Under the pieces are notes generated by a model. That model ran no database searches and was not told the DNA's origin. It was given only the letters and a program-made list of their open reading frames with translations. Positions 13,778-56,880 of a stretch of 64,000 nt of DNA are shown in pieces. The translations under genes were made by a program, and so were the position numbers. This DNA is from Mobilisporobacter sp. (GTDB taxonomy: Bacteria; Bacillota; Clostridia; Lachnospirales; Lachnospiraceae), in NCBI GenBank assembly GCA_031549965.1, contig JAVBPB010000003.1, positions 4,690 to 68,689 on the forward strand. The letters are read 5' to 3'. The stretch's first letter is position 1; each line of letters starts with the position of its first letter.

Positions 13778-13788
13778 GAGGTATACTT

Positions 13789-14175: not shown

Positions 14176-14188
14176 ATGAGGTAAGAAT

Positions 14189-15310: not shown

Positions 15311-15324
15311 AATGGAGGGGTAAA

Positions 15325-15924: not shown

Positions 15925-15928
15925 GACT

Positions 15929-16525: not shown

Positions 16526-16527
16526 GT

Positions 16528-24826: not shown

Positions 24827-24993
24827 TTCTTATAGGAAAAAATATCCTATAAGATTAAATACATAAAAAGGTTACATAACTTTATTAATAAAATTGAAAA
24901 AAAACTAAGGTTTTGTAAAAACTTAGACGATATATATTTCAAAGCTATCTATACAATGTGACTACTAGTTTGATTATTGAGGAGGCAATTAAA

Positions 24994-27900
24994 ATGAAGA
25001 AACTAAGAAAAATATTAGCAATACTAATGTGTATTACGCTAATAGCACCCCTGTTACCCAGTGATTTAGGGAAAGTATTTGCGGCTGAAATAACTGGTCT
25101 CAGGCTCTATGACAGAGAACTTACCGCCCCAACAGCGAATATTACAGTAGATCCTATGCCTGGTGAAGATTTAACAGGTTATACTTTTACATGGAATGTT
25201 CCTTCAGAAGATCAGGGAGTAATAACATGTTCTGGTTCAACAAGTCAGACTGTTACAGTTACCAGAATGGGTACAGGAAGAGCGACTCTTAATGTAACTG
25301 CAACAAACGGTGTAACCACACAGACAACAAGTATGATTATTACCGTTCCGGCTGTATTTGATGCAATTTCAACAACACCTACAGATAAAGATAGCAATGG
25401 CAGGCCAACTGCAATCTATTTATATACGCCAGAAGATCCAGAATATTTAGCAGATCCAGTACAAAAAGCAAAGGAAATTACACTTAACTTAACATATGGG
25501 CTTAGTGATCAGGTAAAATTTAGTTCAACAAATGAGAATGTTGTAACAATAGATGAGACAGGGCTTATTAAGGCAGTTGGTGCAGGTAATGCCAAGATAG
25601 ATGTGTCTTATGGTAATGATACAACAGGTAAGACATCAAGAAGTGTAAATATAGTTGTTGCAGCTAAAGTTATATTTAACTCAACTTTAAGAAAAGAATT
25701 TAAGATTCCAACAGTTTCCCCGGATCCACAATTTCACTTAAAACAATTTGAAGAATATACTATAGTAACTAATACAAAGCCAGAATCATCAGAAGGCAAC
25801 AAAAATCTATTATGGTCGTCTTCACGTACGAAAGTTGCAACAGTAGTAGATGGTAAGTTATCAGTACATAGTGCAGGTGAAACAGAAATTACGATTAAAC
25901 CAAAAGATGGTATAAACTCAATTTATAATGCAAAAATCTCTCTTGTTGTTGATTTTGCTTTAAGCAAGGAATCAGTAATAATGAATAAGGGAGATAAATT
26001 TAATATAGGTACCAATGCAGTTTCAGATGGTATTCAATATTCCTCTTCAAATCCAAGTGTTGTTTCAGTTAACGAAATAACCGGTCTAGTTACTGCTAAT
26101 TCGTCTGGTACAGCAGATATAAAGGTTACATTAACAGATTCAGGACTTTTTGGTGAAAAAGATCAGGCAAGCAGTACAAAAATTTTATATTGTCATGTTA
26201 CAGTAGTAGATGGTATAGGACTTGATCGTACTCAAGTAAGTATAAATAAAGACACTTCATTAAAGTTAGTAGCAATTGCAACAAGCTCAAATGAAATAAA
26301 ATGGACATCAAGTAATAACAGTATTGTAACAGTTGACAGTGATGGTACTATTAAAGGGGTAAAAAGCGGTGTCACTACAGTAACAGCTACACAAGTTGTT
26401 AATGGCATAACCAAAAGTGCTTCATGTGAAGTTACAGTATTAGTTCCAGTTGGAAAGGTAATTCTTAATAAAACATCTGCTGAGATTAAAAACATACAAG
26501 GTGAAGTTGTTTCAGTAGCAGTAGAAAAATTTGAGCCAGATGACGTAAGCCAGATATATAAAGTAATAAATTGGGAATCATCAAGACCAGATTTACTAAA
26601 AATCAAAGAAATATCGGGAACAACTCAATATGCAGAATATGAAGTAACAGGAAAAGGTTCCGGTTATGTTGTACTTTCTGCGGTAACCACCAATAACGTT
26701 GTAATTGCATCTTGTACAGTACTAATAAAAGAGCCTGTAAAAAGTATTACTATACCTGCGGCTTATCAAGACTTAGTTATGAATTTTAATGATAAAAAGA
26801 TTCAACTATTAGCAGAAATATTACCAGTTAATGCTACAGATAAAACAATAAAGTGGAAATCCGGTGATGAAAGGAAAGCTACAGTTGATGAAACAACTGG
26901 TATGGTGAATTTTGTAAGTACTGGCGAAGTAATGATAATGGCTTATTCTGTTGAAAATAAAGAAATATTTAGTGCTACAACAATAACAATTCAGCTTCCG
27001 GTAAAATCAATTGAACTAGATGTTTCAGAATTTTCAGTAGCAAAAAATGGAAAATATAGGCTTACAAGTCTTATACTTCCTAATAATGCAAGTAACAAAA
27101 AAGTAACATGGATTTCATCAGATCCAAAAATTGCATCTGTTGATCAGGAAGGTTTGGTAACGGGTGTAAGTTCAGGTAAATGTATGATAACAGTAAGAAC
27201 TGAAGATGGTGGTCATATAGCAACAGCAACCTGTTCAGTAGTTCAAGAAGTAGAAGGAATTACCCTTGATGTAAAAGAATTAGAGATTAGTAAAGGAGAT
27301 TACTATTTCCTACAAGCAACAGTGCTACCTCTTAACTCTACAGATAAAAACATTCAATGGACCTCAAGTAATCCAAGCATTGCAACTGTAAACAGCTCAG
27401 GTAAAGTAGTAGCTTTAAAAGTTGGAACTACAGTTATTACAGCTAGATCATCAAAGGGTTCTATGTCACAATGTACTGTATATGTAAAACAGCCGGTTAC
27501 TTTAGTTAAAATGAATGTTACAACCAAAGAAATAACTGTTGGGAACTCATTTAAACTATCACCGACAGTGTATCCAAGTGATGCATCAACCAAAACCCTT
27601 GCATGGACATCAAGTGACACTAGTGTCGCAACGGTAGATAAAAATGGAAAGATAAAAGCCTTAAAAGGTGGTAAAACAATAGTATCTGCTAAAGCATCAA
27701 GTGGTGCATGGGATTTATGTACAATTACCGTAATAGAAAAAGTTGCAAGTATTAAATTAAATCATACTTCAGGAATTTTATATTATGGATATACATTTAA
27801 GTTAACAGCTAAAATTACTAACTCAACAGCTTCAAATAAAGGAGTAACATGGTCATCAAGTAATAAAAAGATCGCAACTGTTGATAGTAAGGGTAATGTA

Positions 27901-28716
27901 ATTGCTGTGGGAACAGGAAAGGTTACTATAACCTGTACAGCTAAAGATGGAAGTGGTAAAAAAGCTACATGCAAATTACAGGTAGTATCTCCTGTTACCA
28001 GCGTAAAACTTAACCGAAAAAGTTTCTCAATTATTGAAGGAAAAACAACCAAGCTTACCTCTTCGGTATTCCCTTCAACTGCAAGTATAAAGAAACTAAA
28101 CTGGTCATCAGATGATGAAAGTATTGTAAAAGTTTCCTCAAATGGAACTGTTTCGGCAATTTCACCAGGTGTTGCCACAATAACAATAACATCTACAGAC
28201 GGAACCAATAAAAAAGCCACATGTCTAGTTACAGTAAAAAAATCAATACCGACTACAAGTATAAATGTTTTAACAAATGCAAAAGGTGCTACATTACTAG
28301 TTGGAGAAACAACTACAATTCAAGTTAAAGTTTCACCAACCAACGCTAATGATAAAATTAAATTTACTTCAAATAACAAGGCAGTAGCAACAGTAGATCA
28401 AACAACTGGAAAAGTAGTTGCAAAATCTCCTGGAACAGCAATTATTGATATAACATCAGATAACGGAGTTACCTCATCATGTACAGTATCAGTTATTGGA
28501 TTTGAAAGAACAAGTTTAACATTAGAACAGTATTCTTCCCACACCCTTGTTGTTTTTGGTGCCAGTGAAGGTATAACTTGGGACATTCAAAATCCTGAAA
28601 TAGCTGTTGTAAAAAATGGAAAAGTTGATGCTAAAAAGATTGGTACAACTTATGTAATTGCATCTTTAAACGGCAAGAAAATATATTGTAAGTTAACAGT
28701 AACCAAAATAAGTTAA
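24994..28716 (+). CDS. Secreted protein built of about a dozen bacterial Ig-like group 2 (Big_2) domains
   Basis: ATG at 24994 follows GAGGAGG. Signal peptide MKKLRKILAILMCITLIAPLL...VFAAE. Reiterated Big_2 signature about every 85 aa (...W(S/T)SSNxxIATVDxxGxVxAxxxGxxxITA...). No LPXTG, SLH or choline-binding tail seen. Confidence 0.8.
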   Translation: MKKLRKILAILMCITLIAPLLPSDLGKVFAAEITGLRLYDRELTAPTANITVDPMPGEDLTGYTFTWNVPSEDQGVITCSGSTSQTVTVTRMGTGRATLNVTATNGVTTQTTSMIITVPAVFDAISTTPTDKDSNGRPTAIYLYTPEDPEYLADPVQKAKEITLNLTYGLSDQVKFSSTNENVVTIDETGLIKAVGAGNAKIDVSYGNDTTGKTSRSVNIVVAAKVIFNSTLRKEFKIPTVSPDPQFHLKQFEEYTIVTNTKPESSEGNKNLLWSSSRTKVATVVDGKLSVHSAGETEITIKPKDGINSIYNAKISLVVDFALSKESVIMNKGDKFNIGTNAVSDGIQYSSSNPSVVSVNEITGLVTANSSGTADIKVTLTDSGLFGEKDQASSTKILYCHVTVVDGIGLDRTQVSINKDTSLKLVAIATSSNEIKWTSSNNSIVTVDSDGTIKGVKSGVTTVTATQVVNGITKSASCEVTVLVPVGKVILNKTSAEIKNIQGEVVSVAVEKFEPDDVSQIYKVINWESSRPDLLKIKEISGTTQYAEYEVTGKGSGYVVLSAVTTNNVVIASCTVLIKEPVKSITIPAAYQDLVMNFNDKKIQLLAEILPVNATDKTIKWKSGDERKATVDETTGMVNFVSTGEVMIMAYSVENKEIFSATTITIQLPVKSIELDVSEFSVAKNGKYRLTSLILPNNASNKKVTWISSDPKIASVDQEGLVTGVSSGKCMITVRTEDGGHIATATCSVVQEVEGITLDVKELEISKGDYYFLQATVLPLNSTDKNIQWTSSNPSIATVNSSGKVVALKVGTTVITARSSKGSMSQCTVYVKQPVTLVKMNVTTKEITVGNSFKLSPTVYPSDASTKTLAWTSSDTSVATVDKNGKIKALKGGKTIVSAKASSGAWDLCTITVIEKVASIKLNHTSGILYYGYTFKLTAKITNSTASNKGVTWSSSNKKIATVDSKGNVIAVGTGKVTITCTAKDGSGKKATCKLQVVSPVTSVKLNRKSFSIIEGKTTKLTSSVFPSTASIKKLNWSSDDESIVKVSSNGTVSAISPGVATITITSTDGTNKKATCLVTVKKSIPTTSINVLTNAKGATLLVGETTTIQVKVSPTNANDKIKFTSNNKAVATVDQTTGKVVAKSPGTAIIDITSDNGVTSSCTVSVIGFERTSLTLEQYSSHTLVVFGASEGITWDIQNPEIAVVKNGKVDAKKIGTTYVIASLNGKKIYCKLTVTKIS

Positions 28717-30694: not shown

Positions 30695-31972
30695 ATGAGT
30701 AGAAAAAATTTATACAAAAGATTTTTATTAATATTTTTAGCACTTGACTTTTTTGCAATAATTGGTTTGGGATATTCAAATTTAAATTCATTAATACCTA
30801 ATGAATTAAAGCTTACAGTAGATAATGCTGAAAAAATAAATTTAAACCTTCCTTTAGATTTTAAAATATATACTAAAGATGTTGATGTATTAAGCATTGA
30901 TTCTAAAAAGCTAAGTGAAAATCAAATAAACAAAAATAATTCCTTTATTATCGAATCCTCTGAAAAGGGAAGTTATAGTATTGATTTAAAATTATTTGGA
31001 CTAATTCATTTAAAAAGAATATCTTTAGATGTGGTAGACACAGTTGAACTTATTCCATGTGGGTTTCCTATTGGTATATATGTAGAAACTGATGGTATAT
31101 TAGTTCTTGGAACAAGTGCAATAACATGTATTGATGGATTAAACTATGATCCTTCTAACAAAGTTTTAAAATCAGGAGATTACATTGTAAGTATAAATAG
31201 TAAAAGCGTTAATGATAAATATGAATTTATCGAAGAACTTAAAAACTGTCAAGGGAAAGAAATAATACTTGGTATAAGAAGAAACGATAAAAATATAATA
31301 ACCAAAGTACAACCTGTTAAGACATCACAAAATGAATATAAGATTGGTGTTTGGATTAGAGATAATACTCAGGGAGTAGGGACACTAACCTTTACAGATA
31401 AAAATGGCAATTTTGGTGCATTAGGGCATGGCATAAATGATATTGATACAAGTATGTTAATGGATATAAATAGGGGAAATATTTATAGTGCAGAGATTTT
31501 GTCGATTGTAAAAGGAAAAAATGGAACACCAGGTGAATTAATTGGCTTATTTAATTATGCTAAGAGCATCAAAATTGGAAGCATAGTAAAAAATACACAG
31601 CAAGGTGTCTTTGGTGTTATAAATGAGAATTTTAAGGATTATGAATTTAGTCAGCCTATGAAAGTTGGCTTTAAACAAGATGTAAAATTGGGAAAAGCTC
31701 TATTAAGATGTAGTGTTAATGGTAAAATTAAAGATTATAACATTGAAATTGAAAAAATAGATATAAGCGATTCTAAACATGGCAAAGGTATGGTAGTAAA
31801 AATAACAGATGAAGAACTGCTTGGATTAACAAATGGAATAGTACAAGGAATGAGCGGAAGCCCTATAATACAAGATAATAAGATTATTGGTGCAATAACA
31901 CATGTTTTTGTACAAGATTCAACAAAAGGTTATGCTACTTTTATTGAGAATATGATAAAGGCAATTAATTAG
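30695..31972 (+). CDS. spoIVB: SpoIVB peptidase (S55 family, PDZ-containing sporulation signalling protease)
   Basis: N-terminal TM helix, PDZ region (LKSGDYIVSINSKSV), catalytic region ...GIVQGMSGSPII.... Conserved position between recN and spo0A. Confidence 0.9.
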   Translation: MSRKNLYKRFLLIFLALDFFAIIGLGYSNLNSLIPNELKLTVDNAEKINLNLPLDFKIYTKDVDVLSIDSKKLSENQINKNNSFIIESSEKGSYSIDLKLFGLIHLKRISLDVVDTVELIPCGFPIGIYVETDGILVLGTSAITCIDGLNYDPSNKVLKSGDYIVSINSKSVNDKYEFIEELKNCQGKEIILGIRRNDKNIITKVQPVKTSQNEYKIGVWIRDNTQGVGTLTFTDKNGNFGALGHGINDIDTSMLMDINRGNIYSAEILSIVKGKNGTPGELIGLFNYAKSIKIGSIVKNTQQGVFGVINENFKDYEFSQPMKVGFKQDVKLGKALLRCSVNGKIKDYNIEIEKIDISDSKHGKGMVVKITDEELLGLTNGIVQGMSGSPIIQDNKIIGAITHVFVQDSTKGYATFIENMIKAIN

Positions 31973-32138: not shown

Positions 32139-32474
32139 TATTGCGATAAAAATAGATTGAACAAACATTATAAGACTATTATAATACAAATAAGTTCTAA
32201 AAAAGAACTAACCAAGAAAATTATGCATAATCTTATTGGAAAAAAAATAATAATGTCAATGTAAAAGAAAAATAGAATATATTTTTGTTTAATTAATTAT
32301 TTTAAATTATTAAAATATTAATTGTAATAAAATATGGAAAAATCATATCATATGAAAAATATTTATGAGTATTTTGCCTAAAAATAATTTATTTAATAAA
32401 AATATTGCTCTATAATCTAATAATTAGTATAATGTAATAGATTATACGGGAAGATGATATTAAGAGGAGGAAAT

Positions 32475-33278
32475 ATGGATAAAATTAATGTGGCAATTAT
32501 TGACGACAACGAAAGAATGGTAAACTTATTAGATGGTATTTTAAGAAGTGACGATGATATTGAAGTAGTTGCAAAAGGGGATAATGGATTGGCAGCACTG
32601 GATATAATTAAAGAAAAGCAACCGGATGTAGTTTTATTAGATTTAATTATGCCTAAGCTTGATGGGCTTGGAGTAATGGAAAAGGTAAGAAAAGATCCTG
32701 ATATGAAAAAATCTCCTGCATTTATAATTGTAACAGCAATTGGACAAGAAGTTATAACAGAGAATGCATTTGAATTAGGTGCAAATTATTATATAATGAA
32801 ACCTTTTGATAATAATATGATTTTAAATAGAATTAAACAGATAAAAAAAGACAAAAGCAACAGACTACTTGATAATAAAAAAATGAATATAATAGAAAAT
32901 AAAGCAACTGCTTACATAGAAAGAAACTTAGAAGCAGATGTAACAAATATAATTCATGATATTGGGGTACCTGCACATATAAAGGGATATCAATATTTAA
33001 GAGATGCAATTATTTTAGCAGTGAATGAACCGGATGTATTAAATTCAATAACAAAATTATTATATCCAACAGTTGCTAAGCAGCAACAAACAACGCCAAG
33101 CAGAGTAGAAAGAGCAATTAGACATGCAATTGAAGTGGCATGGAGTAGGGGAAAAGTTGATACAATAAATGATTTATTTGGATATACTGTTAATACAGGA
33201 AAAGGAAAACCAACAAATTCAGAATTTGTTGCATTAATTGCGGATAAAATTAGGTTAGAGTATAAGATGAGAGGATAA
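32475..33278 (+). CDS. spo0A: Sporulation master regulator Spo0A
   Basis: ATG at 32475 follows AGAGGAGG. Receiver domain (DD...D56-like [11 protein letters not shown]). C-terminal Spo0A-specific HTH (...[20 protein letters not shown]...[10 protein letters not shown]...[17 protein letters not shown]). Confidence 0.95.
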
Positions 33279-33405: not shown

Positions 33406-35208
33406 ATGAAAAGAAAGTTTATACAAAAAATAATAGTTTTTGTAGGTGCGATTTTAATTGTTTTAGGATTTAGTTCAACAGTTTTGGCAGATACATATAC
33501 CACAGATATACCCATTGTTGTTAATAAAACCTATAATGGAATGACAAACATAATTAATTCAAGTGAAACGGAAATAAAAAGATATACAATTAATCTAACT
33601 AGTTATGCAAGAGTATATGCTGAATTTATTTCTGATGACGGATTTTTATATGCAAGACTTATAGATGGTTCTACTGGAAAAGAATTAGCTTTATATAGTC
33701 CTAAAACATATGGCGAAGTTTGGTATTCAAAAGGTTTTGATTTATCAGTTGGAACATATTATTTTGAAGTAGAGAGAAAAGTTAATTCAAGTGTTCAATT
33801 AAATTATTCATTTACAATTCATTCAACAATGTATGGTTTAGATATTGCCAAAGAAGATTATTCTTGTGACTTAGCATTAAACAAAAACTATACTCAGTCA
33901 AGATATATTGATGATTACTCTAAAACATCATTTAAGCGTACATTCGCAGTATTAGAAGATGGTATAGTAGATATTGAATTTATTAATAATTCAAATGGGT
34001 ATGGTGATATTACAATATTTACAGCTTCGGGAGTTCCTATTAGCAGCGAATCATATATGCCAAATGGAAAAGCTACATTGAAAAATAATTATTTGACAAA
34101 AGGCAACTATTATGTGCAAATAGAAAATGTTTTTACAGGTATAGTTTTTCAATATGATATTTGTATAAATCATAACAAAGCAATGATTCTTGATCATATT
34201 AATAACGATAAAAGTGAAAAAATATATGTAGGAGACGCAAAAAAGTTTTACTTTGAGAACGTTATATTTGAAGGTGCAACATGGAAGTCCTCAAACACAA
34301 GTGTTGTTTCAATTTCGGGATTTGGTGTTGCAACAGCAATTAAAGAAGGTACTGCAGTTATATCATTAGTAAGTTCAGACAACAATGTTATATATACATA
34401 TAATTTAATTGTTGTAACTAAGGATAATTATACAATACAAAAATTAAGCTTTAATATAGCAAATAAACTTTTAAATTCAGGAGATCAATTTAATTTAAAG
34501 CCAATATATTTACCTGCTGATGTAACTAATAAAAACTTGTATTGGGAAACAACAGATAAAGATGTTGCAACAGTTAGTCAAGGTGGTATAGTTACAGCAA
34601 TAGGTTCAGGTACAGCAATTATTACAGTAACTGATAAGATTACCGGAAAAGTTGCAGCTTGCGAAGTATTTATAGATACACAAGGAACTGACTTGGAAAG
34701 AATAATAATTAATGAAGGTGAATACTATATAGAACATGGAGATGAAATTCAATTAGAAGCAAAACCGTATCCATCAGGAGCTTTACTTGGAGATATAATT
34801 TGGTATTCAGCAGATCCAAGTATCGTTACAGTTAATTCCGATGGTATTGCTGAGGGAGTAGCACCAGGAGACGCCACAATAATAGCCTATACAGCAAAAA
34901 ATTTAGATAGTGGTGAAAGTATGGCTTATTGTACAGTACATGTAGAAAATGTTTATTTTGTAGAAAAGGTTTCTCTAAATCTTACTAAAAAGACACTTCA
35001 AAGAGGAAAAACATTTACATTAAAAGCAACAGTATCTCCGTCTAATGCCGGAATAAAAACTGTTTCGTATAAATCTTCCAATACAAAAGTTGCTACTGTT
35101 AACAGTAAAGGTGTTGTTACCGGAATTAAGCCAGGAACAGCAGTAATAACAGTTAAATCTAATGATAAGTTTGGAAAAAGTACTAAATGTACGGTTACTG
35201 TAAAATAA
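33406..35208 (+). CDS. Secreted protein: two PPC-like (pre-peptidase C-terminal-like) modules plus four Big_2 domains
   Basis: Signal peptide. Two internally similar about 110-aa modules (...NKTYxG...RYTINL...GTYYFEVE...YSFTI and ...NKNYTQ...RTFAVL...GNYYVQIE...YDICI). These are followed by Big_2 signatures (WKSSNTSVVSI..., WETTDKDVATVSQGG..., etc.). Confidence 0.7.
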   Translation: MKRKFIQKIIVFVGAILIVLGFSSTVLADTYTTDIPIVVNKTYNGMTNIINSSETEIKRYTINLTSYARVYAEFISDDGFLYARLIDGSTGKELALYSPKTYGEVWYSKGFDLSVGTYYFEVERKVNSSVQLNYSFTIHSTMYGLDIAKEDYSCDLALNKNYTQSRYIDDYSKTSFKRTFAVLEDGIVDIEFINNSNGYGDITIFTASGVPISSESYMPNGKATLKNNYLTKGNYYVQIENVFTGIVFQYDICINHNKAMILDHINNDKSEKIYVGDAKKFYFENVIFEGATWKSSNTSVVSISGFGVATAIKEGTAVISLVSSDNNVIYTYNLIVVTKDNYTIQKLSFNIANKLLNSGDQFNLKPIYLPADVTNKNLYWETTDKDVATVSQGGIVTAIGSGTAIITVTDKITGKVAACEVFIDTQGTDLERIIINEGEYYIEHGDEIQLEAKPYPSGALLGDIIWYSADPSIVTVNSDGIAEGVAPGDATIIAYTAKNLDSGESMAYCTVHVENVYFVEKVSLNLTKKTLQRGKTFTLKATVSPSNAGIKTVSYKSSNTKVATVNSKGVVTGIKPGTAVITVKSNDKFGKSTKCTVTVK

Positions 35209-47067: not shown

Positions 47068-47073
47068 TAAAGA

Positions 47074-47115
47074 TTCATTCTGTAACTATGCTTATATTTG
47101 CATTTACAGAATGAA
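47074..47115 (+). other. 12-bp perfect stem-loop in the 68-nt smpB-hisS spacer, no U-tract
   Basis: TTCATTCTGTAA...TTACAGAATGAA, followed by CTCAAAAAGGAGG (the hisS RBS). Confidence 0.6.
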
Positions 47116-47135
47116 CTCAAAAAGGAGGATATGTA

Positions 47136-48404
47136 ATGAAAATTAATCCTGTAAAAGGAACCAATGATTTTCTGCCTGAAGAAATGGAACTAAGGGATAA
47201 TATGCAGGACAGAATTCTTAAAGTATATAGAAGTAATGGTTTTGAAAGAGTTTCAACACCGATTATTGAATCACTTGAAAACCTTAATAAAAGTGATGGG
47301 GGAGAAAATTTAAATCTTATTTTCAACGTATTAAAAAGAGGAGATAAATTTAAGAGGGCAGTTGAAAATATAAAAAATTTAATTGAAAATGAAGGAACGG
47401 CTAACGAACTTTCAGACATTGGCTTAAGATACGATCTTACATTACCATTAAGCAGATATTTTGTAAATAATAGAAATAACCTTAAGCCGCCATATAAGTT
47501 TATTCAAATTGATCGTGTTTATAGAGCTGAAAAGCCTCAAAGAGGAAGAAACAGAGAATTTATGCAATGCGACATAGATATGATAGGCATTGATTCCCCT
47601 AATGCAGAAATTGAATTAATACTTACAACAGGAAAAGCTTTGGAATCAGTAGGAATAACCGATTATTGTATTAGAATAAATGACAGAAGAATTCTTAGAG
47701 GATTTCTGATTTCAATAGGATTTAATGAGGACATGCTTGATGGTGTTTGTATAACAATTGACAAGGCTGATAAGGTTAGCACTAATGATATGTGTTTTGA
47801 ACTTCTTGAAAAAGGATGCAGTGAAAAAGCAGTTGAATTATTAAAAGAAGTGATTAATACACAAAATCCAAGTCTTAAACAAATAACTGAAAATATTGAT
47901 AATGAAGAATATACTAAAAATTTGGAATATATCATTGACTCCATAGATGCTATATCAAATGGAGCTGTAAAAGTAGTATTTGACTGGAAACTGGTAAGAG
48001 GACAGGGATATTATACAGGAATAGTATTTGAGATTGAAAGCAGTGAATTTGGTGGAACTATAGGCGGTGGAGGAAGATACGACAATATGATTGGAAAATT
48101 TGCAAATGAAAATTTATCCGCTGTAGGATTTTCCATAGGATTTGAACGTATATACACAATACTAAAAGAAAAAGGATATAGATTTGAGGATTCACAGAAG
48201 AAAGCTGTTGTAATATATGAAAAAAATTCCTTTACAAAAGCCTATAAAGAAGCTGAAAAATTAAGATTAGAATATCAAGTTAAGATGTGTGAAAAACCTA
48301 AAAAATTAGGAAATTTATTAAACGCATTTGAATCAACTGGATATAAAGGATTTGTATTAGTTGACAATAATAATGAACCACAGTTCAAAGAATTTAAAAA
48401 CTAG
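47136..48404 (+). CDS. hisS: Histidine--tRNA ligase, archaeal/eukaryote-like subtype
   Basis: Class II motif 2 (YRAEKPQRGRNREFMQCDIDMIG), motif 3 region GGGGRYD. The HisA-box region reads GLRYDLTLPLSRY, the eukaryotic/archaeal LRYDLTVPFARY type. C-terminal anticodon-binding-like domain is present. Confidence 0.85.
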   Translation: MKINPVKGTNDFLPEEMELRDNMQDRILKVYRSNGFERVSTPIIESLENLNKSDGGENLNLIFNVLKRGDKFKRAVENIKNLIENEGTANELSDIGLRYDLTLPLSRYFVNNRNNLKPPYKFIQIDRVYRAEKPQRGRNREFMQCDIDMIGIDSPNAEIELILTTGKALESVGITDYCIRINDRRILRGFLISIGFNEDMLDGVCITIDKADKVSTNDMCFELLEKGCSEKAVELLKEVINTQNPSLKQITENIDNEEYTKNLEYIIDSIDAISNGAVKVVFDWKLVRGQGYYTGIVFEIESSEFGGTIGGGGRYDNMIGKFANENLSAVGFSIGFERIYTILKEKGYRFEDSQKKAVVIYEKNSFTKAYKEAEKLRLEYQVKMCEKPKKLGNLLNAFESTGYKGFVLVDNNNEPQFKEFKN

Positions 48405-48443
48405 AATCTTATAGGTATTTAGTGAGCTCATGATATCCGAGGC

Positions 48444-48595
48444 ACACCTAATTTTATAAATCCTCATATACTTAACACATGTTATTTGCACCATAAATGA
48501 GTTTGCCGTTAGTCAGAGAGGATACCACTCCAATCTTTCTATCGCCTTACCCAGGTATATAACTGATGTCAAGTATATAAGGATTTACTGGGTGT
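48444..48595 (+). other. About 150-nt element closed by a 17-bp (16/17) long-range inverted repeat; candidate structured ncRNA (6S-like?) or MITE-like remnant
   Basis: TAAATCCTCATATACTT (48457-48473) pairs with AAGTATATAAGGATTTA (48571-48587). Outer ACACC (48444-48448) pairs with GGTGT (48591-48595). Inner hairpin AGAGAGG...ATCTTTCT. No ORF. Confidence 0.35.
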
Positions 48596-48596
48596 A

Positions 48597-49724
48597 TTAG
48601 TATCTAAAAAGGGTCTTTATGTTACCGGAAGCAGTTTGAGCAAGTAATTTATATTCAGGGTTTATTCCTACTGTAGCATTAGCATGATTTCCTTTTTTAT
48701 TATAAAAACATTCAAATTCAGACTTAATAGAACCAGAATGGCATCTACACTCAAAATTAAAACTAATATTTTTAGATACATAAATAACAACATTACCAGA
48801 TGTAGCCGAAAACTCACAATCCCCTGAAAGGGTGCAAAGTTCAATTTTATTATTTCCCGAAAAGGTCTCAATAAACCCTGAACCATTAAAACTTGATATA
48901 TTAGTGTTACCAGAGGTTACTTTTGCATTAATTTTCCCAGTCATATCTCGAATCTTTAGATTACCGGATGTAAGCTTAAAATTATGTAAAGTACCAAAAA
49001 TTTTGTCAATAGTAATATTTCCAGAGGTACACTTCATAGAGCCATCGCCTATTAATACATCAATATTAATATTCCCAGAAACACTATTTAGTGCATAACT
49101 ATTACATTTAATATTTGTCATTTCAATATTCCCAGAGATAGCCTTAAAACCAAGATAATTAAAAGTAGCTTCATGTGATATATTAATTTTACCTGAAAAA
49201 CTGTTAACATCAAGGTTTCCATTATAATTTACCGGAAGATAAACCTCAAGTCTCTCAAAAAGAGTTAAAAATGGAATAAACCAATTAGGTCTTTCCTGTT
49301 TGATAATTAATTCATCTCCAACTCTTTCAGTAGTTATAGTGCTTCTAATTTGTTTTTTATATCTGGTTGTTACAACCTTTGCTTCGATAGTATTATTAGA
49401 TGGAAAAAATACAACATCAAGACTAAATACATTAATCTTAATAGTATTAACTAATTGCACAGATTGTTCTTCATTATTTTCAATATTTATTTTTTCAGTA
49501 GCCTCATTAATTTGAGCATTAATATATTTAATCAATTCTTCAGGATCACCAATACCATCAATAACCATTTCATATGCAGTACCTTCATCTTTTCCAATAT
49601 CTATTAAATCATTAAACTTTTCAACAAGGTTAACAATAATTTCTTCTTTTAAATCAATAGTAAATTCGCTTTCAGGAATCGATTTAAAAATATCATTTAT
49701 ATATTCGGTTATTTTTCCAGTCAT
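48597..49724 (-). CDS. HAAS/DUF1700-like N-terminal domain fused to a DUF4097 beta-strand-repeat domain
   Basis: N-terminus ...ITEYINDIFKSIPES...LVEKFNDLIDIGKDEGTAYEMVIDGIGDPEELI (DUF1700-like). The C-terminal half has about nine (S/T)SGN(I/L/V)x(I/M) repeats typical of DUF4097. ATG at 49724 is preferred over the TTG at 49757. Confidence 0.7.
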   Translation of the reverse strand: MTGKITEYINDIFKSIPESEFTIDLKEEIIVNLVEKFNDLIDIGKDEGTAYEMVIDGIGDPEELIKYINAQINEATEKINIENNEEQSVQLVNTIKINVFSLDVVFFPSNNTIEAKVVTTRYKKQIRSTITTERVGDELIIKQERPNWFIPFLTLFERLEVYLPVNYNGNLDVNSFSGKINISHEATFNYLGFKAISGNIEMTNIKCNSYALNSVSGNINIDVLIGDGSMKCTSGNITIDKIFGTLHNFKLTSGNLKIRDMTGKINAKVTSGNTNISSFNGSGFIETFSGNNKIELCTLSGDCEFSATSGNVVIYVSKNISFNFECRCHSGSIKSEFECFYNKKGNHANATVGINPEYKLLAQTASGNIKTLFRY

Positions 49725-49746
49725 AATTATTAATTCCTTTCTAAAT

Positions 49747-50073
49747 TTATTCTTCAATCAACAAATCGATCATATTTTTAGTTTCCTGCCATTCTTCCAC
49801 ATTTTTAAAAAATGAATTTTTTCCTAACTCAGTTATTCTATAATACTTTCTTCTTGCCCCTCTATCTTCATCTCCCCAATAAGACTCTATAAATTGAGCA
49901 GTTTCAAGTCTTCTAAAAGCAGTATACAAAGTTGCCTCTTTAATCTCATAGCCACCATTAGTTTTTTTAATAACAGACTTATTAATTTGGTAACCATAGC
50001 TATCTTTTTTCAAAAGCTGAGCTAAAATTATAGTTTCAGTATGACCACGTATCAAATCTGATGTAATTGACAT
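49747..50073 (-). CDS. PadR-family transcriptional regulator
   Basis: ...ILAQLLKKDSYGYQINK...EATLYTAFRRLETAQFIESYWGDE..GARRKYYRITELGK, the canonical PadR winged helix. Confidence 0.9.
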   Translation of the reverse strand: MSITSDLIRGHTETIILAQLLKKDSYGYQINKSVIKKTNGGYEIKEATLYTAFRRLETAQFIESYWGDEDRGARRKYYRITELGKNSFFKNVEEWQETKNMIDLLIEE

Positions 50074-50394
50074 CTTATCACCTCACTTGCATATTAAATA
50101 TATTATAATTAAACATACATCGCCTGTCAAGGTATATTTAATTGTAATGTATATTAAATTGTAAAAAAGCTCATTTTAGTCTTTCTAACAAAGTAAAACA
50201 AGGCATTTACACTTCCAAAAGAATATCGAGTCATAATATCAAAACTTCCTCATATATGTAACCAAATTGTCTAATATGTATACAATAAATTAAAGCAAGT
50301 ATTTATCTTATTGGTAAAAAATTACAACTACTTTTGTACTACTTGCTTTTATATGTAAGATGGAAAGGAAATGTCTCGAGTGAGGAGAAATTAT

Positions 50395-51597
50395 ATGAAT
50401 TCACAAGAAATATGTGACAGTAATAGCTACAATTCTCAAGAATGCAATAGATGTTGCTATAGAGGACCTAAGGGAGACAAAGGCGAAAAAGGAGATCAAG
50501 GTCTACAAGGCTGTCCAGGTTCCCAAGGTTTACCCGGTCCAAAAGGAGATAAAGGAGATCCCGGAGAACGAGGTTATCAAGGAATTCCCGGTCCACAGGG
50601 TTCAAAGGGAGATTCTGGATGCAGAGGCCCCCAAGGTGAACGTGGCCCAAGAGGTCCACAAGGCTTTCAAGGCCCAGAAGGTCCAAGAGGATGCAAAGGT
50701 GAAATGGGTCCCCAAGGTTGCCAAGGTGCAAGAGGTCCAAAGGGTGAACAAGGACCGCCAGGCCCAAAAGGAGAACCAGGAGTGCAGGGAATCCCCGGAA
50801 AAGCAGGTTGCCCTGGACCCCAAGGTCCTCAAGGATGTCATGGTACTCAAGGTCCAAAAGGAGAACAAGGACCCCCAGGTCCAAAAGGAGAAACAGGAGA
50901 TTGTGGTCCATCAGGTCCTCAGGGAATACAAGGACCTCAAGGTATAAAAGGAGAAAAAGGTTGCCCAGGTCCAAAAGGAGAACCGGGAGATATGGGAGAA
51001 CAAGGCCCAAAAGGAAATCAAGGACCTCCAGGTCCAAAAGGAGATCCAGGTTTAAGAGGTCCAAAAGGAGATAAAGGAGAATGTGGACAGCCAGGTCCAA
51101 GGGGATGTAAAGGTCCAAGAGGTCCAAAAGGTCCACAGGGAGAAAAGGGTGAAAGAGGAGAAGCAAAAATTATGGCTTTTGGCTCTCTTTATCAGCCTTG
51201 TATGTGCGAAGAAAGATACAAAAATATCGAATTTATGGAAACTGGGCCTTGCTATGGAGTGAGAGTGGATACGCAAGATAGTAGTTTTACAATATGCGAA
51301 GAAGGGACATATAGTATTAACTTTTCTTTAACTCTCATTCTTGAAAGGTGTAAAGCAGTAAATAAAGCCTTTGGTTTATTTATTAATGAAAATTTAATTG
51401 AAAATTCCATTATAGAACAGATGTTAGTGCCTATTCAAAGTTGTAAATGTAGATATTATGCAATTGCAACTACAGGAAAATCAATACAAATGTTTTTGTA
51501 TCATGGTGACACTTTAACATTAAGATTTTTAGATGAAAGAGAAGAAGATGGAATTATGTATAGTCATGCAGCATTTAATATTTTGCAGCTGATGTAA
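50395..51597 (+). CDS. Collagen-like protein 1: Cys-rich N-terminus, 78 Gly-X-Y triplets (10 Cys inside the helix), C1q/BclA-like C-terminal domain
   Basis: ATG at 50395 is 7 nt after GAGGAG. I counted the triplets by hand (nt 50464-51165). The 143-aa C-terminus shows a jelly-roll-like pattern (...[14 protein letters not shown]...GDTLTLRF...). Confidence 0.85.
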
Positions 51598-51650
51598 CTA
51601 AGCAGAAAAGGCTGTTGTAAACAGTTAATTTATTGAAAGGGTTGAAAGTT

Positions 51651-53243
51651 ATGGCAAGAAATGATCAAAATGAACATCTTGATTACAGAAATAACGATAA
51701 AAAATGTTATTGTAATGACTTTATAGATGAAATTTATAAAAAGGAATGCTGGGAAGAGGAGGATGAACAACATAAATGTAAGGACTGTAATATTGATGAA
51801 TGTATAGGGCCAGTAGGACCAAAAGGAGATACTGGAGCAAAAGGTAAACAAGGTCCTACTGGAAAAAAAGGTCCAAGAGGTTTAAAGGGAGAAACAGGAG
51901 ATAGGGGAGAACCAGGTTGCCCTGGACCACAAGGACCACAAGGACCAAAGGGTGCTACCGGATTAAAAGGGCCAAAAGGTGATGTAGGGGTAGCGGGTCC
52001 AAGAGGAATAAGAGGAATATTAGGAGCACAAGGACCAAAAGGAACTCCAGGTTTAGAAGGTCCAAGGGGCCCAATGGGAATTGCAGGACCAAAAGGTCCA
52101 AAGGGAGATATAGGATCACAAGGCCCTCAAGGAGAAACAGGTCCACAAGGTGATAAAGGTGATATAGGAATAAGAGGTCAAAAAGGTGAAATGGGATGTA
52201 TAGGAGAAACTGGAGATAAAGGAGAAAGAGGATTAAGAGGTCCGACAGGAGAAAGAGGTTGTTTAGGTCCAAAAGGTTCAGAGGGAATGAAAGGCCCTAC
52301 AGGTGATAAAGGTCCAAAAGGCCCAAAGGGTGATAAAGGTGAAGTAGGACCAGACGGTCCAAAAGGTCCAAAAGGAGATACAGGATCTCAAGGCCCAAAA
52401 GGTGATAAAGGAGATATAGGTCCTCAAGGAGAACAAGGTGATAGAGGAGACAGAGGAATACAAGGTGACCAAGGTGATAGAGGAGTAGAAGGCATTCAAG
52501 GAGAAAAGGGAGATATAGGACCTCAAGGTGAACAAGGAGATGTAGGACCAAGAGGTAATACAGGACCAAAAGGAGATATGGGAGCACAAGGCTATCAAGG
52601 AGAAGCAGGAGATATTGGTTTAGATGGAGAAAGAGGAGAACCGGGAGAAGATGGTATTATGGGTCCACAAGGTCAAAAAGGGGATACAGGACCAGAAGGA
52701 CCGGCAGGAGATAGGGGACTGGATGGAATTGATGGAGTAGATGGAGAAACGGGAGAAATAGGTGAAAAAGGAGACAAAGGTCTTAAAGGAAGAGATGGAG
52801 TAGTAATTCCTGTATCAATTTATAATGGAAAATTAGATGCACCTATTTCACCACCATATGATACATTAACTAAATTAAGCATACATGAAACTTTGGCTGG
52901 TGAGTTTACAATAATTGATGAGAATACAATAAGTGTAATAAAGGCGGGAGTATATTATTTTGAAACATCTGCAACTACAACATTTGTTACAGAGGGAAGT
53001 AATTATAATATCTGTACATTTACCATGAAACTTAACAATAATCTTGTTCAAGAAAGTATAATTAAATCTGTATTTAGATTGGCTGAAGTTACAGATGATT
53101 TGGAATTAAGTTATAATTATACAAAGATGTATCAAGTAAGTCTTTCAGAGGGTGATACAATCTATTTTGATTATATTTTAAATACAGGAAACCAACGTGA
53201 CATTTTGGATTTTAATGTGAGTATTTATAAAATTTCCATGTAA
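51651..53243 (+). CDS. Collagen-like protein 2: Cys-rich N-terminus, 111 Gly-X-Y triplets, C1q/BclA-like C-terminal domain
   Basis: Uninterrupted GXY from GPV (nt 51807) to GVV (nt 52805). C-terminus ...[15 protein letters not shown]...EGDTIYFDY.... Confidence 0.85.
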
Positions 53244-53268
53244 ATACACGATGAAAGGATGATCTTGA

Positions 53269-54825
53269 ATGAAAAGAAATAGAAATGAAAATGAACACGA
53301 TTATGATGATTATTGTTTGGAAGATTTGGAATGTGAACAAAAAATATGTAGGGATAAGGATATTGAAATTGGAGAAAGAGGACCAAAAGGACCAAAAGGT
53401 TATAAGGGCCCACGTGGAGATATAGGGTGTGTAGGTTTACAAGGAGAAGTTGGCTTTAAAGGTGAATGGGGATTACAAGGTGAGAAGGGACCACAAGGTC
53501 CAAGAGGTTTTGAAGGTGTTGAAGGAGATCAAGGTCAGCAAGGTGACAGGGGAGAAAAAGGTCCACAAGGTCCAATTGGACCAATGGGATATCAAGGCCC
53601 AAAAGGTGAAAAAGGAGATCAAGGTCCGGAAGGAGCACAAGGCCCACAAGGTTTGCAAGGCCCACAAGGCTCAAAAGGAGACAGAGGCCCACAGGGAATT
53701 ATAGGTTGCACTGGACCAAAGGGGCTTAGAGGAGATGATGGCCCAAAAGGACCAAAAGGAGATCCAGGTCTGCAAGGATGTAAAGGACCAAAAGGAGATC
53801 CAGGACCACAAGGTTTACAAGGTCCAACAGGTTATGCAGGCCCACAGGGATTAGAAGGTCCAAGAGGAGCACAAGGACCTAAGGGCGATCCGGGCGATCC
53901 GGGTGAACGTGGAGAACAAGGTGTAATGGGTTCTCAAGGAGATAAAGGTAACACAGGGCCACAAGGTCCAGATGGTATAACCGGAGAAATGGGACCACAA
54001 GGTGAGCAAGGTGAAAAAGGTCCAAAAGGGCTTGAAGGGTTAGCAGGAGAAATGGGACCACAAGGCATTCAAGGGCCAAAAGGAGACATAGGTCCGGATG
54101 GAGTAGAAGGAGACCCGGGTCCTCAGGGATATCAGGGAATAAAAGGAGATATAGGACCGGATGGTTTACAAGGACTTCAAGGAATGCAAGGGAGAAAAGG
54201 AGATAGAGGTTCAGATGGTGCAAATGGCCCTCAAGGTCCAAAGGGCGATGAAGGAGATCAAGGCCCAAAAGGACCAAACGGGTTAGCTGGTTTAGATGGC
54301 AAAGATGGAGCAAAAGGTGCAAAAGGATTGACAGGTGAAGATGGAGAGTCAGGAGACCGAGGAGACGATGCATTAGTAACAGGAAGTTATTTTGGAATGA
54401 AAAGTACAGTTCCTCACACCGGTGCAGTAGTTGTCGGAGCTAAACTTAATTTGGGTTCGGGTCAAATGAGTGGATTTATTCCTATGTCAACAGATGGAAA
54501 TACTACAGCCATACAATGTAATGGAAGCGGGCTATTTATGGTAACAGTTTCAGCTAGTATTCAATTATTGGTTGATGGTAGTTCTGGATACTATACTTGC
54601 AATACTGAAATAGGTATTTATGTTGGAGATACGCTTGTAGATAAATTAAAATGTGGTTTGGGATTTGTTGAAACACCTGATAGAAGAATCATAGGACATT
54701 ATGCAAATCAAAAAACTCTTATTCTTTCTATTGCCCCTAATAATGAATTAAATTTAAGATTTGTATCAGCTGATAAAGGTACTGCTTGCGGTAATTTGGT
54801 ATTTTCTGCTATACAATTGATATGA
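53269..54825 (+). CDS. Collagen-like protein 3: Cys-containing N-terminus, 111 Gly-X-Y triplets, C1q/BclA-like C-terminal domain
   Basis: Uninterrupted GXY from GER (nt 53371) to GDD (nt 54369). 151-aa C-terminus ...[13 protein letters not shown]...NNELNLRFV.... Confidence 0.85.
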
Positions 54826-54841
54826 TACGAGGTGAACAAGT

Positions 54842-56344
54842 ATGAAACATGAATATGAATATTGTAAAAAAGATAATTTTAAGTGTGGAATCTGTCCAGG
54901 TCCAACAGGACCCAAGGGTGATGTAGGGGATATGGGAGATATGGGGCCTGAGGGTCCACAAGGTCCACAAGGTCCAAAGGGTCCAAGTGGAGAAAAAGGT
55001 GCTAGAGGAGAAGATGGTATAGTTGGACCAAGAGGGAAAAAAGGAAATACAGGTTTGCAAGGACCAAAGGGAGAAACAGGTGAGGTTGGTCCACAAGGTC
55101 CACAAGGTCCCGAAGGCCCACAAGGTGTTACAGGAGATAAAGGAGATCAAGGCGTTAGAGGGCCACAAGGAGCACAAGGAGCACAAGGAGCAAAAGGAAT
55201 AGTTGGAGATATAGGTTCAAAAGGTTACATGGGTCCAAAAGGACCAAAAGGAGAAAAGGGTGGACCAGGAATTCAAGGAGATAAGGGTGCTACAGGACCA
55301 AAAGGAGAAAAGGGAGATCAGGGTTGTATTGGAATAAAAGGTGAAATTGGATGTCAAGGTCCAATTGGAATAAAAGGTCCAGCTGGTCCAAAAGGTCCGA
55401 CAGGAGATGAGGGAGATAAGGGACCAAAAGGAGAAGCAGGACCGGCCGGAGTGCAAGGACCAAAAGGAGAAACCGGAGAAATGGGTCCAAAGGGAGAAAA
55501 AGGAACTACTGGTGCCCCAGGACTAAAAGGATTAAAAGGAGAAACAGGAGATAAAGGAGACAAAGGAAGAACAGGAGAAATGGGACCACAAGGCTTAAGA
55601 GGAGAAACAGGAGATCAAGGAGTGAAGGGACCAGCCGGCCCAAGCGGTCATGAAGGTTCAAAGGGAGAAAGAGGTGACCGTGGAGCAGATGGTCCTAAGG
55701 GCATACAAGGTCTTCAAGGAGAAAAGGGAGAGCAAGGAGCAGCAGGACTTTCAGGGCCACAAGGTCCAAATGGAGAACCAGGCTCTATAGGACAAAAAGG
55801 AGAAAATGGAGAACCAGGTAAAAACGGAAATCCTGGCCCGACAGGTGACCAAGGAGATAAAGGTGCACAAGGGATAATCGGAGATTCGGGAGACGATGCA
55901 TATATGATAAATTCATATGGTTCAATGTATGGTGAAAATGAATCAAGAATGTCATACGCATCAATTGTTCTTTACGATAAGGAATCTGTTCCTGCATCAA
56001 ATGTAAATTGTCAGCCATTAATTGGAAAGATAACAATTAATAAAGCTGGAGTATATGCAGTTAGTTTTTCTACAACACTTAAGTTAACCAATCTTCCTGG
56101 TGCAATTGCGGCATATGTAAGATTAGAATTATATCTTAACGGAGTAACCACAGGTGATATCTTTGTGGATCACGGGCACGACAATGTTCAGCCGGATACT
56201 GATTTTATAACTGAATTTACTACTGGTAAATCTGTTATAAGAAACCTTAAGGAAGGTGATGTACTTGAAATTGCTTGTGTATCTTTAGCAGGTGAAGCTT
56301 TTTATAGTAATTCAAGTTTTAATATTGTTGGTGTTAATATTTAA
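54842..56344 (+). CDS. Collagen-like protein 4: Cys-containing N-terminus, 111 Gly-X-Y triplets, C1q/BclA-like C-terminal domain
   Basis: Uninterrupted GXY from GPT (nt 54899) to GDD (nt 55897). 148-aa C-terminus ...ITINKAGVYAVSFST...EGDVLEIAC.... Confidence 0.85.
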   Translation: MKHEYEYCKKDNFKCGICPGPTGPKGDVGDMGDMGPEGPQGPQGPKGPSGEKGARGEDGIVGPRGKKGNTGLQGPKGETGEVGPQGPQGPEGPQGVTGDKGDQGVRGPQGAQGAQGAKGIVGDIGSKGYMGPKGPKGEKGGPGIQGDKGATGPKGEKGDQGCIGIKGEIGCQGPIGIKGPAGPKGPTGDEGDKGPKGEAGPAGVQGPKGETGEMGPKGEKGTTGAPGLKGLKGETGDKGDKGRTGEMGPQGLRGETGDQGVKGPAGPSGHEGSKGERGDRGADGPKGIQGLQGEKGEQGAAGLSGPQGPNGEPGSIGQKGENGEPGKNGNPGPTGDQGDKGAQGIIGDSGDDAYMINSYGSMYGENESRMSYASIVLYDKESVPASNVNCQPLIGKITINKAGVYAVSFSTTLKLTNLPGAIAAYVRLELYLNGVTTGDIFVDHGHDNVQPDTDFITEFTTGKSVIRNLKEGDVLEIACVSLAGEAFYSNSSFNIVGVNI

Positions 56345-56370
56345 TATTATTAAATTAAGTCATTTATTAA

Positions 56371-56399
56371 GGGGGAATATACTGGATGTATATTCCCTT
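56371..56399 (+). terminator. Hairpin after the collagen-like gene array
   Basis: GGGGGAATATA / TATATTCCCTT stem with a 7-nt loop. The trailing T-run is weak. Confidence 0.5.
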
Positions 56400-56449
56400 A
56401 TCATTTCATTTTGATTAAAAAGCAGAAATATAAATGTTAAAAATTTACA

Positions 56450-56478
56450 TTGACATTATTCTTAATACAATATATAAT
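56450..56478 (+). promoter_or_regulatory. Consensus sigma-A promoter of ssrA
   Basis: TTGACA, 17-nt spacer, TATAAT (both hexamers perfect), about 40 nt upstream of the mature tmRNA 5' end. Confidence 0.75.
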
Positions 56479-56519
56479 AACTGATATGTCTGTTAACCAA
56501 TCAATTCATAATCTAATTA

Positions 56520-56863
56520 GGGGTTGTACTGGTTTCGACGGGGGTATTGAAATTATGGAAGCCATTCGTGGTCTGGGTCCACGTAAAAACCTGGAATTAA
56601 ATATAAACGCAGACGAAAATTTAGCGTACGCTGCCTAGTGGCAGCTGTCGACTCTAAGCAACTTGCGGCTTAGATGTTCGGCATCAACTTAGCAAGGCAC
56701 TTTGTTTTCAAAGCTTTGAGGAAATAAAAGAATTTATGAAGCTACTAAAGTCTTAAGCCTGTCATTGGGCGTAAGATAGAGGGAATGTTAAATTAATGAC
56801 TGTAATGGGAGATGCTACAATGGATAGACTTTCGGACAGGGGTTCGATTCCCCTCAGCTCCAC
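56520..56863 (+). ncRNA. ssrA: tmRNA (SsrA)
   Basis: 5' GGGGUUGUACUGGUUUCGACGGGGG. The 3' T-arm GGUUCGAUUCCCC is followed by the acceptor strand CAGCUCC pairing with GGGGUUG (G3:U pair) and discriminator A. Tag ORF GCA GAC GAA AAT TTA GCG TAC GCT GCC TAG = ADENLAYAA* (56609-56638). The CCA end is not fully encoded. Confidence 0.93.
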
Positions 56864-56880
56864 TAAAAAGGTAGAAATAA

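Follow-up and report, generated by a model that had tools for sequence, protein, structure and literature searches.

Do three neighbouring collagen-like genes of a bacterium, with helices of identical length, encode three separate fibres or the three chains of a single one? The question is raised by four tandem collagen-like genes (genes 1 to 4) on the plus strand of a 64,000-nucleotide stretch of Mobilisporobacter sp., a member of the Lachnospiraceae (NCBI GenBank assembly GCA_031549965.1, contig JAVBPB010000003.1, positions 4,690 to 68,689 of the forward strand); this whole stretch is called the window here. We propose, with a probability of roughly 0.7, that genes 2, 3 and 4 encode the A, B and C chains of one collagen-like heterotrimer (ABC). 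A sequence-only reading of the window had already suggested such an assembly from the equal length of the helices. An independent salt-bridge test now supports this proposal and adds a register to it, as the charges of the three equal-length chains are complementary in silico only as one blunt-ended ABC trimer and in one register.

Results

Three helices of 111 triplets

Each of the four proteins consists of an N-terminus, a run of Gly-X-Y triplets (the helix) and a C-terminal head. The layouts given below in amino acids (aa) were obtained from the listing of open reading frames and from a script count of the triplets.

50371-51597, plus strand: gene 1, 408 aa (31 aa, 78 triplets, 143 aa)
50371-50463, plus strand: Cys-rich N-terminus of gene 1
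50464-51165, plus strand: helix of gene 1
51166-51594, plus strand: TNF/BclA_C-like head of gene 1
51651-53243, plus strand: gene 2, 530 aa (52 aa from the ATG at 51651, 111 triplets, 145 aa)
51651-51806, plus strand: N-terminus of gene 2 with six cysteines
51807-52805, plus strand: helix of gene 2
52806-53240, plus strand: TNF-like head of gene 2
53269-54825, plus strand: gene 3, 518 aa (34 aa, 111 triplets, 151 aa)
53269-53370, plus strand: N-terminus of gene 3 with three cysteines
53371-54369, plus strand: helix of gene 3
54370-54822, plus strand: head of gene 3
54842-56344, plus strand: gene 4, 500 aa (19 aa, 111 triplets, 148 aa)
54842-54898, plus strand: N-terminus of gene 4 with three cysteines
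54899-55897, plus strand: helix of gene 4
55898-56341, plus strand: head of gene 4

The hand count of the sequence-only reading, 111 uninterrupted triplets in each of genes 2, 3 and 4, was reproduced by the computational re-count, as were the lengths of the N-termini, helices and heads of these genes; counted from a TTG at 51633, the N-terminus of gene 2 has 58 aa. All four helices are single unbroken runs, an interrupted (kinked) stalk of the C1q type was not seen, and the collagen repeat PF01391 of Pfam matched genes 1 to 4 with E values of 1e-40 to 1e-56. Since the flanking domains of genes 2 to 4 differ in length, at the N-terminus (52, 34 and 19 aa) as well as in the heads (145, 151 and 148 aa), it is only the length of the helix that is preserved. 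Judged by a panel of 124 unrelated collagen-like proteins, of which four contain an uninterrupted run of at least 111 triplets, the probability that the longest run is equal in three proteins by chance is about 4e-4.

The X and Y residues had been described as highly diverged between the three genes, and their identity in register, 17-23%, is indeed close to the background of 15.5% (standard deviation 2.7). Y positions are mostly occupied by Lys, Gln and Arg, with Thr at 5-12 of 111. A faint in-register similarity is left between the helices of genes 3 and 4 (z score 2.8) and of genes 2 and 4 (z 2.0). The helix DNA is non-repetitive and displays only the generic 60-70% periodicity of collagen genes, plus short repeats within gene 2; apart from the latter, no DNA repeat above about 70% identity was found among the helices. 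Recent duplication or gene conversion was therefore rejected. As a side observation, the X and Y residues of genes 2 and 3 (helices 51807-52805 and 53371-54369) resemble each other most when one helix is displaced by +1 triplet (24%, z about 3.2), a value that is marginal after multiple testing. This shift could reflect compensating indels at the ends that kept the total at 111, or be an echo of the offset between trailing and leading chain.

Cysteines within the helices are located at triplets 13, 44 and 51 (gene 2), 7, 38 and 46 (gene 3) and 48 and 51 (gene 4), exactly where they had been placed by hand, and all of them occupy X positions; the helix of gene 1 harbours ten. The helices of genes 3 and 4 both terminate with GDD-A, as noted before, and that of gene 2 with GVV-I. 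Long alternative-frame or antisense open reading frames overlap the collagen genes at 50414-51166, 51955-52598, 53879-54373 and 54809-55186. Their translations are of low complexity and rich in Leu, Lys and Val, and they are by-products of the GGN-NNN-NNN periodicity and not genes.

Charge pairing between the chains

For the salt-bridge test, the chains of genes 2, 3 and 4 were termed g2, g3 and g4 and assembled with the one-residue stagger of the triple helix. Lateral contacts are then Y(A,n)-X(B,n), Y(B,n)-X(C,n) and Y(C,n)-X(A,n+1), and axial contacts are the same Y-X pairs shifted one triplet onward. The score of each of the 27 ordered trimers is the number of opposite-charge minus like-charge contacts, and the contact convention reproduces the published counts of the TRX3 homotrimer, namely six axial and three lateral pairs. 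Trimers are written in the order leading, middle and trailing chain, with z scores against triplet shuffles.

g3-g4-g2: net score 130, z 9.6
g2-g3-g4 and g4-g2-g3 (blunt, same cyclic order): net scores 102 and 95, z 6.2 and 5.3
three trimers of the opposite cyclic order: net scores 54-70, z 0.4-2.3
g2 homotrimer: net score 82, z 0.7
g3 homotrimer: net score 56, z 2.0
g4 homotrimer: net score 77, z 2.0

The g3-g4-g2 trimer combines 78 favourable and 3 repulsive axial pairs with 60 favourable and 5 repulsive lateral ones, and 51 of the 78 axial pairs are of the Lys-Asp type. Partners are found for 101 of the 111 acidic X residues and for 94 of the 117 basic Y residues. Among 20,000 triplet shuffles, the best trimer scored 82 in comparison to 130 for the actual one. 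Under local shuffles that keep the regional composition, g3-g4-g2 still reached z 8.5-9.5, as opposed to about 1 for its reverse order, so that a shared regional composition was ruled out as the source of the signal. In a search of 18,496 combinations, which comprise 64 chain triples (gene 1 included) with offsets of -8 to +8 triplets for two of the chains, the highest score of all again belonged to g3-g4-g2 with blunt ends and in register.

The same arrangement emerges from the chain pairs taken singly, for which offset profiles were calculated from -25 to +25 triplets. Pairing of Y residues of g3 with X residues of g4 peaks at offsets (d) of 0 and 1 (z 3.7 and 4.2), that of Y(g4) with X(g2) at d = 1 (z 4.3; 1.6 at d = 0), and that of Y(g2) with X(g3) at d = 2 and 1 (z 4.6 and 2.1). 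These peaks fall exactly at the positions predicted by the geometry of the triple helix, and no comparable peaks were seen for reverse and self chain pairs within the same range of offsets. Applying the one-residue stagger to this salt-bridge cycle makes gene 3 the leading (A), gene 4 the middle (B) and gene 2 the trailing chain (C). The exact register g3-g4-g2 is held with somewhat less confidence than the heterotrimer itself.

As homotrimers, the three chains behave differently from collagens in general. In a reference panel of 121 uninterrupted collagen runs from unrelated proteins, the homotrimer z score has a median of 4.3 and a maximum of 8.4, and 76% of the runs exceed 3. Genes 2 to 4 lie in the lower tail of this distribution, with 8-14 repulsive axial pairs per homotrimer as opposed to 3 in the ABC trimer, while the latter scores above every panel member. 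Gene 1 is typical of the panel (homotrimer score 85, z 4.75), and in-register assembly is its best offset. The usual homotrimer code consists of intrachain KGD and KGE motifs, which are common to all collagens. The ratio of observed to expected [KR]G[DE] motifs is 1.89 in gene 1 and 1.17-1.54 in genes 2 to 4, compared with 1.83-1.99 for cross-chain axial pairs in the cycle g3 to g4 to g2 to g3 and 0.85-1.39 in the reverse direction. Because the intrachain enrichment is below the cross-chain enrichment, residual homology combined with intrachain motifs is unable to generate the pairing signal, and this candidate source was rejected.

The register also bears on the cysteines. The coincidence of a cysteine at triplet 51 in genes 2 and 4, pointed out in the sequence-only reading, is real, and Cys51 of these two genes is the only pair of helix cysteines that the predicted register would bring side by side. 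A disulfide between two X positions of an undistorted collagen helix is doubtful, and most helix cysteines are therefore more likely to serve as cross-links between fibres.

Head domains and N-termini

At the level of the fold, the description of the C-termini as C1q-like heads is supported. AlphaFold2 models of the heads of gene 4 and gene 2 are all-beta (predicted local distance difference test, pLDDT, 72 and 70.5, respectively) and match the TNF/C1q/BclA/ExsFA-BxpB jelly-roll. Foldseek aligned the gene 4 model with EDA-A1, ExsFA, BxpB, C1QL and BclA at E values of about 1e-8, and BxpB was the top match of the gene 2 model. Overall, the matches span the TNF/C1q jelly-roll superfamily (EDA-A1, 4-1BBL, C1QL, Cbln1, ExsFA, BxpB and BclA), with PDB entries 1wck, 3tyj and 2z5w for BclA, 8d02 for BxpB and 7r1m for ExsFA.

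Sequence profiles point in the same direction with less force. Besides the collagen repeat, Pfam yielded only BclA_C (PF18573) in genes 4 and 1, at 16.5-17.4 bits and hence below the cut-off of 38 (E 8e-3 for the weak match of gene 4); BclA_C did not match genes 2 and 3, and the Pfam C1q domain (PF00386) matched none of genes 1 to 4. A profile of the four heads weakly matched the gC1q domain of adiponectin (E 1.4e-3). The heads are mutually 17-26% identical and unequal in length. By hhalign they are related to the family of the gene 1 head with probabilities of 98.8% (gene 4), 94.7% (gene 2) and 93.1% (gene 3), and these profile alignments show homology among all four.

The N-termini are charged and Cys-rich, and in chains 2 to 4 cysteines sit 2-13 residues ahead of the first Gly. 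They lack a hydrophobic segment and therefore a signal peptide, and the proteins carry no cell-wall anchor for surface export.

Search for related clusters

Relatives of the cluster were sought in several collections. Searches with the heads of genes 1, 2 and 3 in a set of 5.8 billion proteins returned no orthologues, and full-length gene 4 found only generic or phage-fibre collagens there. The four-head profile, run against 1.84 billion cluster representatives, had its best match, at 84 bits, in a relative of the gene 1 head without a collagen region. No such cluster was detected by scans of genome, metagenome and viral contigs, tblastn against phages gave no matches, and in an exact cluster look-up the proteins of genes 1 to 4 were not in the collection. 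At the smpB loci of related Lachnospiraceae, the collagen cluster was present in 0 of 80. The head searches returned no named relatives; the gene 1 head shares 48% identity with P0001, a Cys/His-rich protein without collagen.

Two matches to Cys-rich collagens (P0102 and P0124) were rejected as related clusters, each being a single gene. The former, an unrelated Cys-rich collagen-like protein of 674 aa with GPKGDTG repeats, is encoded directly upstream of a spore-morphogenesis gene with a SipL domain on a metagenome contig (L083, 10001-13214). This position again hints at an association of Cys-rich collagen-like proteins of Clostridia with spores.

Transcription and genomic neighbourhood

The following elements flank or separate the collagen genes.

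47136-48404: second hisS-like gene
48597-50073, minus strand: divergent PadR/DUF4097 pair
50074-50370, plus strand: region upstream of gene 1, candidate promoter region
53244-53268, plus strand: spacer between genes 2 and 3, 25 nucleotides (nt), with an AAAGGA ribosome-binding site and no hairpin
54826-54841, plus strand: spacer between genes 3 and 4, 16 nt, with a GAGGTGA ribosome-binding site and no hairpin
56371-56412, plus strand: intrinsic-terminator-like element, composed of a hairpin (12-bp stem, -17.4 kcal/mol) and a U-rich tract behind it
56520-56865: ssrA, the transfer-messenger RNA (tmRNA), with the tag ADENLAYAA and a perfect sigma-70 promoter at 56450-56478

Both spacer lengths are those given in the sequence-only reading. 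The 25-nt spacer between genes 2 and 3 with its ribosome-binding site suggests co-transcription and coupled translation. Gene 2 has an AAAGGG ribosome-binding site 9 nt ahead of its ATG, and the spacer between genes 1 and 2 contains a weak hairpin only. The hairpin at 56371-56412, which is absent from the list of a simple terminator scan, is likely to end the transcription unit after gene 4. Perfect sigma-70-like promoters were present for PadR and ssrA. Upstream of gene 1, promoters for sigma-E or sigma-K were sought by eye and none was convincing; a sporulation sigma factor is suspected to drive this gene. Three copies of ATATGTA occur on the plus strand within 104 nt upstream of gene 1 (at 50254, 50274 and 50351), a motif found 36 times on both strands of the 64-kb window, and these copies may represent a regulatory or alternative-sigma element.

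The order of genes in this region is gap-pgk-tpi-pgm, rnr, smpB, the hisS-like gene, DUF4097 and PadR on the minus strand, genes 1 to 4, and ssrA. The interval between smpB and ssrA (47068-56519) measures 9.4 kb in contrast to 0.1-8 kb in related Lachnospiraceae, and the collagen cluster is therefore regarded as accessory DNA in a variable interval. SmpB itself is at most 85% identical to that of Anaeromicropila, Anaerocolumna and Anaerosporobacter. Past ssrA, the segment 57507-62997 contains an open reading frame for a 1369-aa P-loop protein with an N-terminal match to Avs4 (PADLOC, E 5e-26). The segment also encodes a tyrosine integrase (minus strand) and looks like a defence island integrated at ssrA.

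The window further includes spoIIIAA, spoIIIAB, spoIIIAE and spoIIIAH (12073-17394) as well as spoIVB and spo0A (30695-31972 and 32454-33278), which identifies the host as an endospore former. Two proteins with immunoglobulin-like Big_2 repeats (24958-28716, 1252 aa with nine repeats; 33406-35208, 600 aa with three) are probably surface proteins. A small protein whose N-terminus has a prepilin-type methylation motif is encoded near a 1209-aa DUF5057 protein (1465-2001 and 3125-6754), and this locus possibly belongs to a pilus or pseudopilus.

Discussion

The assembly that we propose for genes 2, 3 and 4 draws on analogy with BclA, C1q and collagen folding in general. The three genes are probably co-transcribed. 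Their TNF/C1q-like heads would associate, select the chains and nucleate folding, after which the 111-triplet stalks would zip toward the N-terminus with blunt ends and the Cys-rich N-termini would lock or anchor the fibre. The register would be set by a cyclic code in which the basic Y residues of gene 3 (Lys or Arg) pair with the acidic X residues of gene 4 (Asp or Glu), gene 4 pairs likewise with gene 2, and gene 2 returns to gene 3 one triplet further. The predicted product is a rod that measures about 95 nm (333 residues, each adding about 0.29 nm) and bears a globular head formed as a heterotrimer. It would be assembled inside the mother cell, on the surface of the spore. Given the lack of a signal peptide, the exosporium-like heads and the spoIIIA genes, spoIVB and spo0A of the host, the spore surface is the most likely place of assembly, at slightly better than even odds. 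The complete picture, a natural ABC heterotrimer with a salt-bridge-coded register and a heterotrimeric TNF/C1q-like head that forms a convergent, C1q-like fibre on the spore, we consider probable, with less assurance than the heterotrimer taken by itself. Gene 1 probably encodes a separate, shorter and highly cross-linked 78-triplet homotrimer of the same structure.

C1q is a bouquet of six A/B/C trimers with kinked collagen stalks. Genes 2 to 4 resemble it in their number and tandem arrangement, the matched stalks, the heads of the TNF/C1q fold, the cysteines N-terminal to the helix and the predicted ABC product. They differ from it by a stalk that is about four times longer and free of interruptions or kinks, by their bacterial origin, by the missing signal peptide and by the missing Pfam C1q match; the relation is almost certainly convergent or only very distant. 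With BclA of Bacillus and BclA1-3 of C. difficile they share the endospore-forming Bacillota as hosts, the succession of N-terminal domain, collagen and TNF-like head, and the absence of a signal peptide. The two modelled heads match exosporium BclA, BxpB and ExsFA in structure, with Pfam BclA_C below its cut-off. BclA collagen regions are repetitive, Thr-rich (GPT-type) and length-polymorphic, and are encoded by single genes. The helices described here are, in contrast, non-repetitive and charge-rich, consist of 111 triplets and carry a heterotrimer code; in silico, the homotrimeric assembly of BclA finds no counterpart in them, with z 0.7-2.0 for homotrimers versus 9.6 for ABC.

The gene arrangement itself is not unprecedented, because Pasteuria ramosa possesses tandem triplets of Pasteuria collagen-like (PCL) genes, which belong to groups 1, 2 and 3 and have a fixed order. 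The likeness concerns the arrangement only, i.e., three diverged collagen-like genes in the same orientation in a spore-forming member of the Bacillota. For the PCL proteins heterotrimers are merely mentioned as possible, and evidence of assembly, an analysis of register or a matching of lengths was not found in the literature examined. According to what McElroy 2011 is said to report, the X and Y residues of PCL proteins are typically Pro and Thr. A parallel in physical principle is offered by designed ABC peptides (Hartgerink-type axial Lys-Asp pairs, SCEPTTr). Their composition and register are selected by axial and lateral pairs between a basic Y residue (Lys or Arg) and an acidic X residue (Asp or Glu), which run from A to B, from B to C and from C back to A, axial Lys-Asp pairs being the established means to fix both. 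Those peptides are synthetic, about 30 residues long and contain hydroxyproline, whereas genes 2 to 4 encode a natural 333-residue helix with heads and without hydroxyproline. As proposed here, the three genes work like C1q and obey the rules of designed ABC peptides; by sequence they belong to neither family. A natural bacterial heterotrimeric collagen was not found in the literature searched.

Several points weigh against an ABC heterotrimer. The evidence is entirely computational and stems from one strain, and a simple charge count leaves aside other determinants of stability. In collagens it is usually the heads and not the helix that select the chains. An orthologous three-gene cluster was absent from all collections searched, and the only other contigs with these genes, from Logan SRR23967707 and SRR23967709, do not differ from the window (100% identity). 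A sigma-70-like promoter, defined by at least 9 of 12 consensus matches, is lacking in the last 230 nt before gene 1. Two trimers of 2:1 composition, g4-g2-g2 with a score of 111 and g4-g4-g2 with 105, rank second and third behind g3-g4-g2 and may compete with it. Finally, C. difficile BclA1-3 were predicted by AlphaFold 3 as homotrimers only, and the characterised prokaryotic collagens are homotrimers (2022 review).

This precedent, which includes the BclA-type collagens, would be in line with three separate homotrimeric fibres whose equal length is selected by a shared layer, be it a nap of uniform height or an inter-layer spacer, without any co-assembly. Each gene also encodes a complete head of its own, which could trimerise without the others, and gene 3 displays a weak axial signal with itself (z 2.2). 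We nevertheless regard such fibres as unlikely, since homotrimers of these chains pair poorly by the standard of the panel and of gene 1 and accumulate repulsive axial contacts, and since the directional, offset-exact pairing between different chains would be left unexplained. The 2:1 trimers, together with the combinatorial heterotrimers suggested in the literature for Pasteuria PCL proteins, might instead indicate a promiscuous mixing of chains (A2B, AB2 and ABC) that creates a combinatorial diversity of heads and no single obligate trimer. This is quite unlikely, as ABC is ahead by 19 points and axial pairs are enriched about 1.8-2.0-fold at all three interfaces and not only from g4 to g2, which argues for selection on the complete cycle. 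A neutral origin, in which paralogues kept an ancestral length by coincidence or inheritance and the pairing is a by-product of residual homology and intrachain KGD/KGE motifs, could draw on the faint in-register similarity of the helices (that of g2 and g3 being best at +1) and on the ubiquity of these motifs. It is very improbable given that the intrachain enrichment remains below that across chains, that the signal is directional and absent from the reverse order, and that indels have accumulated in the heads and N-termini and none in the helix.

A different kind of alternative concerns the location. Whatever its chain composition, the fibre might be cell-surface, phage-derived or tailocin-type, and thus not part of the spore. 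The head of gene 4 has a weak match to the C-terminus of phrog_746, a family of minor tail proteins of phages (E 5e-5), Foldseek also lists cyanophage and mycobacteriophage fibre heads, and the cluster occupies the variable smpB-ssrA interval beside the integrase island. Phage structural genes are not adjacent, however, the phage and viral collections gave no matches, a signal peptide or cell-wall anchor is missing, and exosporium proteins (BxpB, ExsFA and BclA) are among the nearest structural matches, all of which renders a location off the spore unlikely.

If the ABC heterotrimer is confirmed, it would be the first natural heterotrimeric collagen in bacteria and would overturn the working rule of homotrimeric collagens in prokaryotes. 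Other tandem triplets of collagen genes, such as those of Pasteuria, would then be suggested as heterotrimers too, which provides a testable hypothesis for these so far unexplained triplets, and the cross-chain salt-bridge scan could be applied genome-wide to find further cases. It would also mean that nature uses the axial Lys-Asp register code of peptide chemists, and does so over 333 residues. The genes could serve as a template for long, register-defined heterotrimeric recombinant collagens produced in bacteria without hydroxyproline, an open difficulty according to the 2022 review. For the Lachnospiraceae, the three chains would represent a new type of spore-surface fibre and, with respect to vertebrate C1q, a striking case of convergence.

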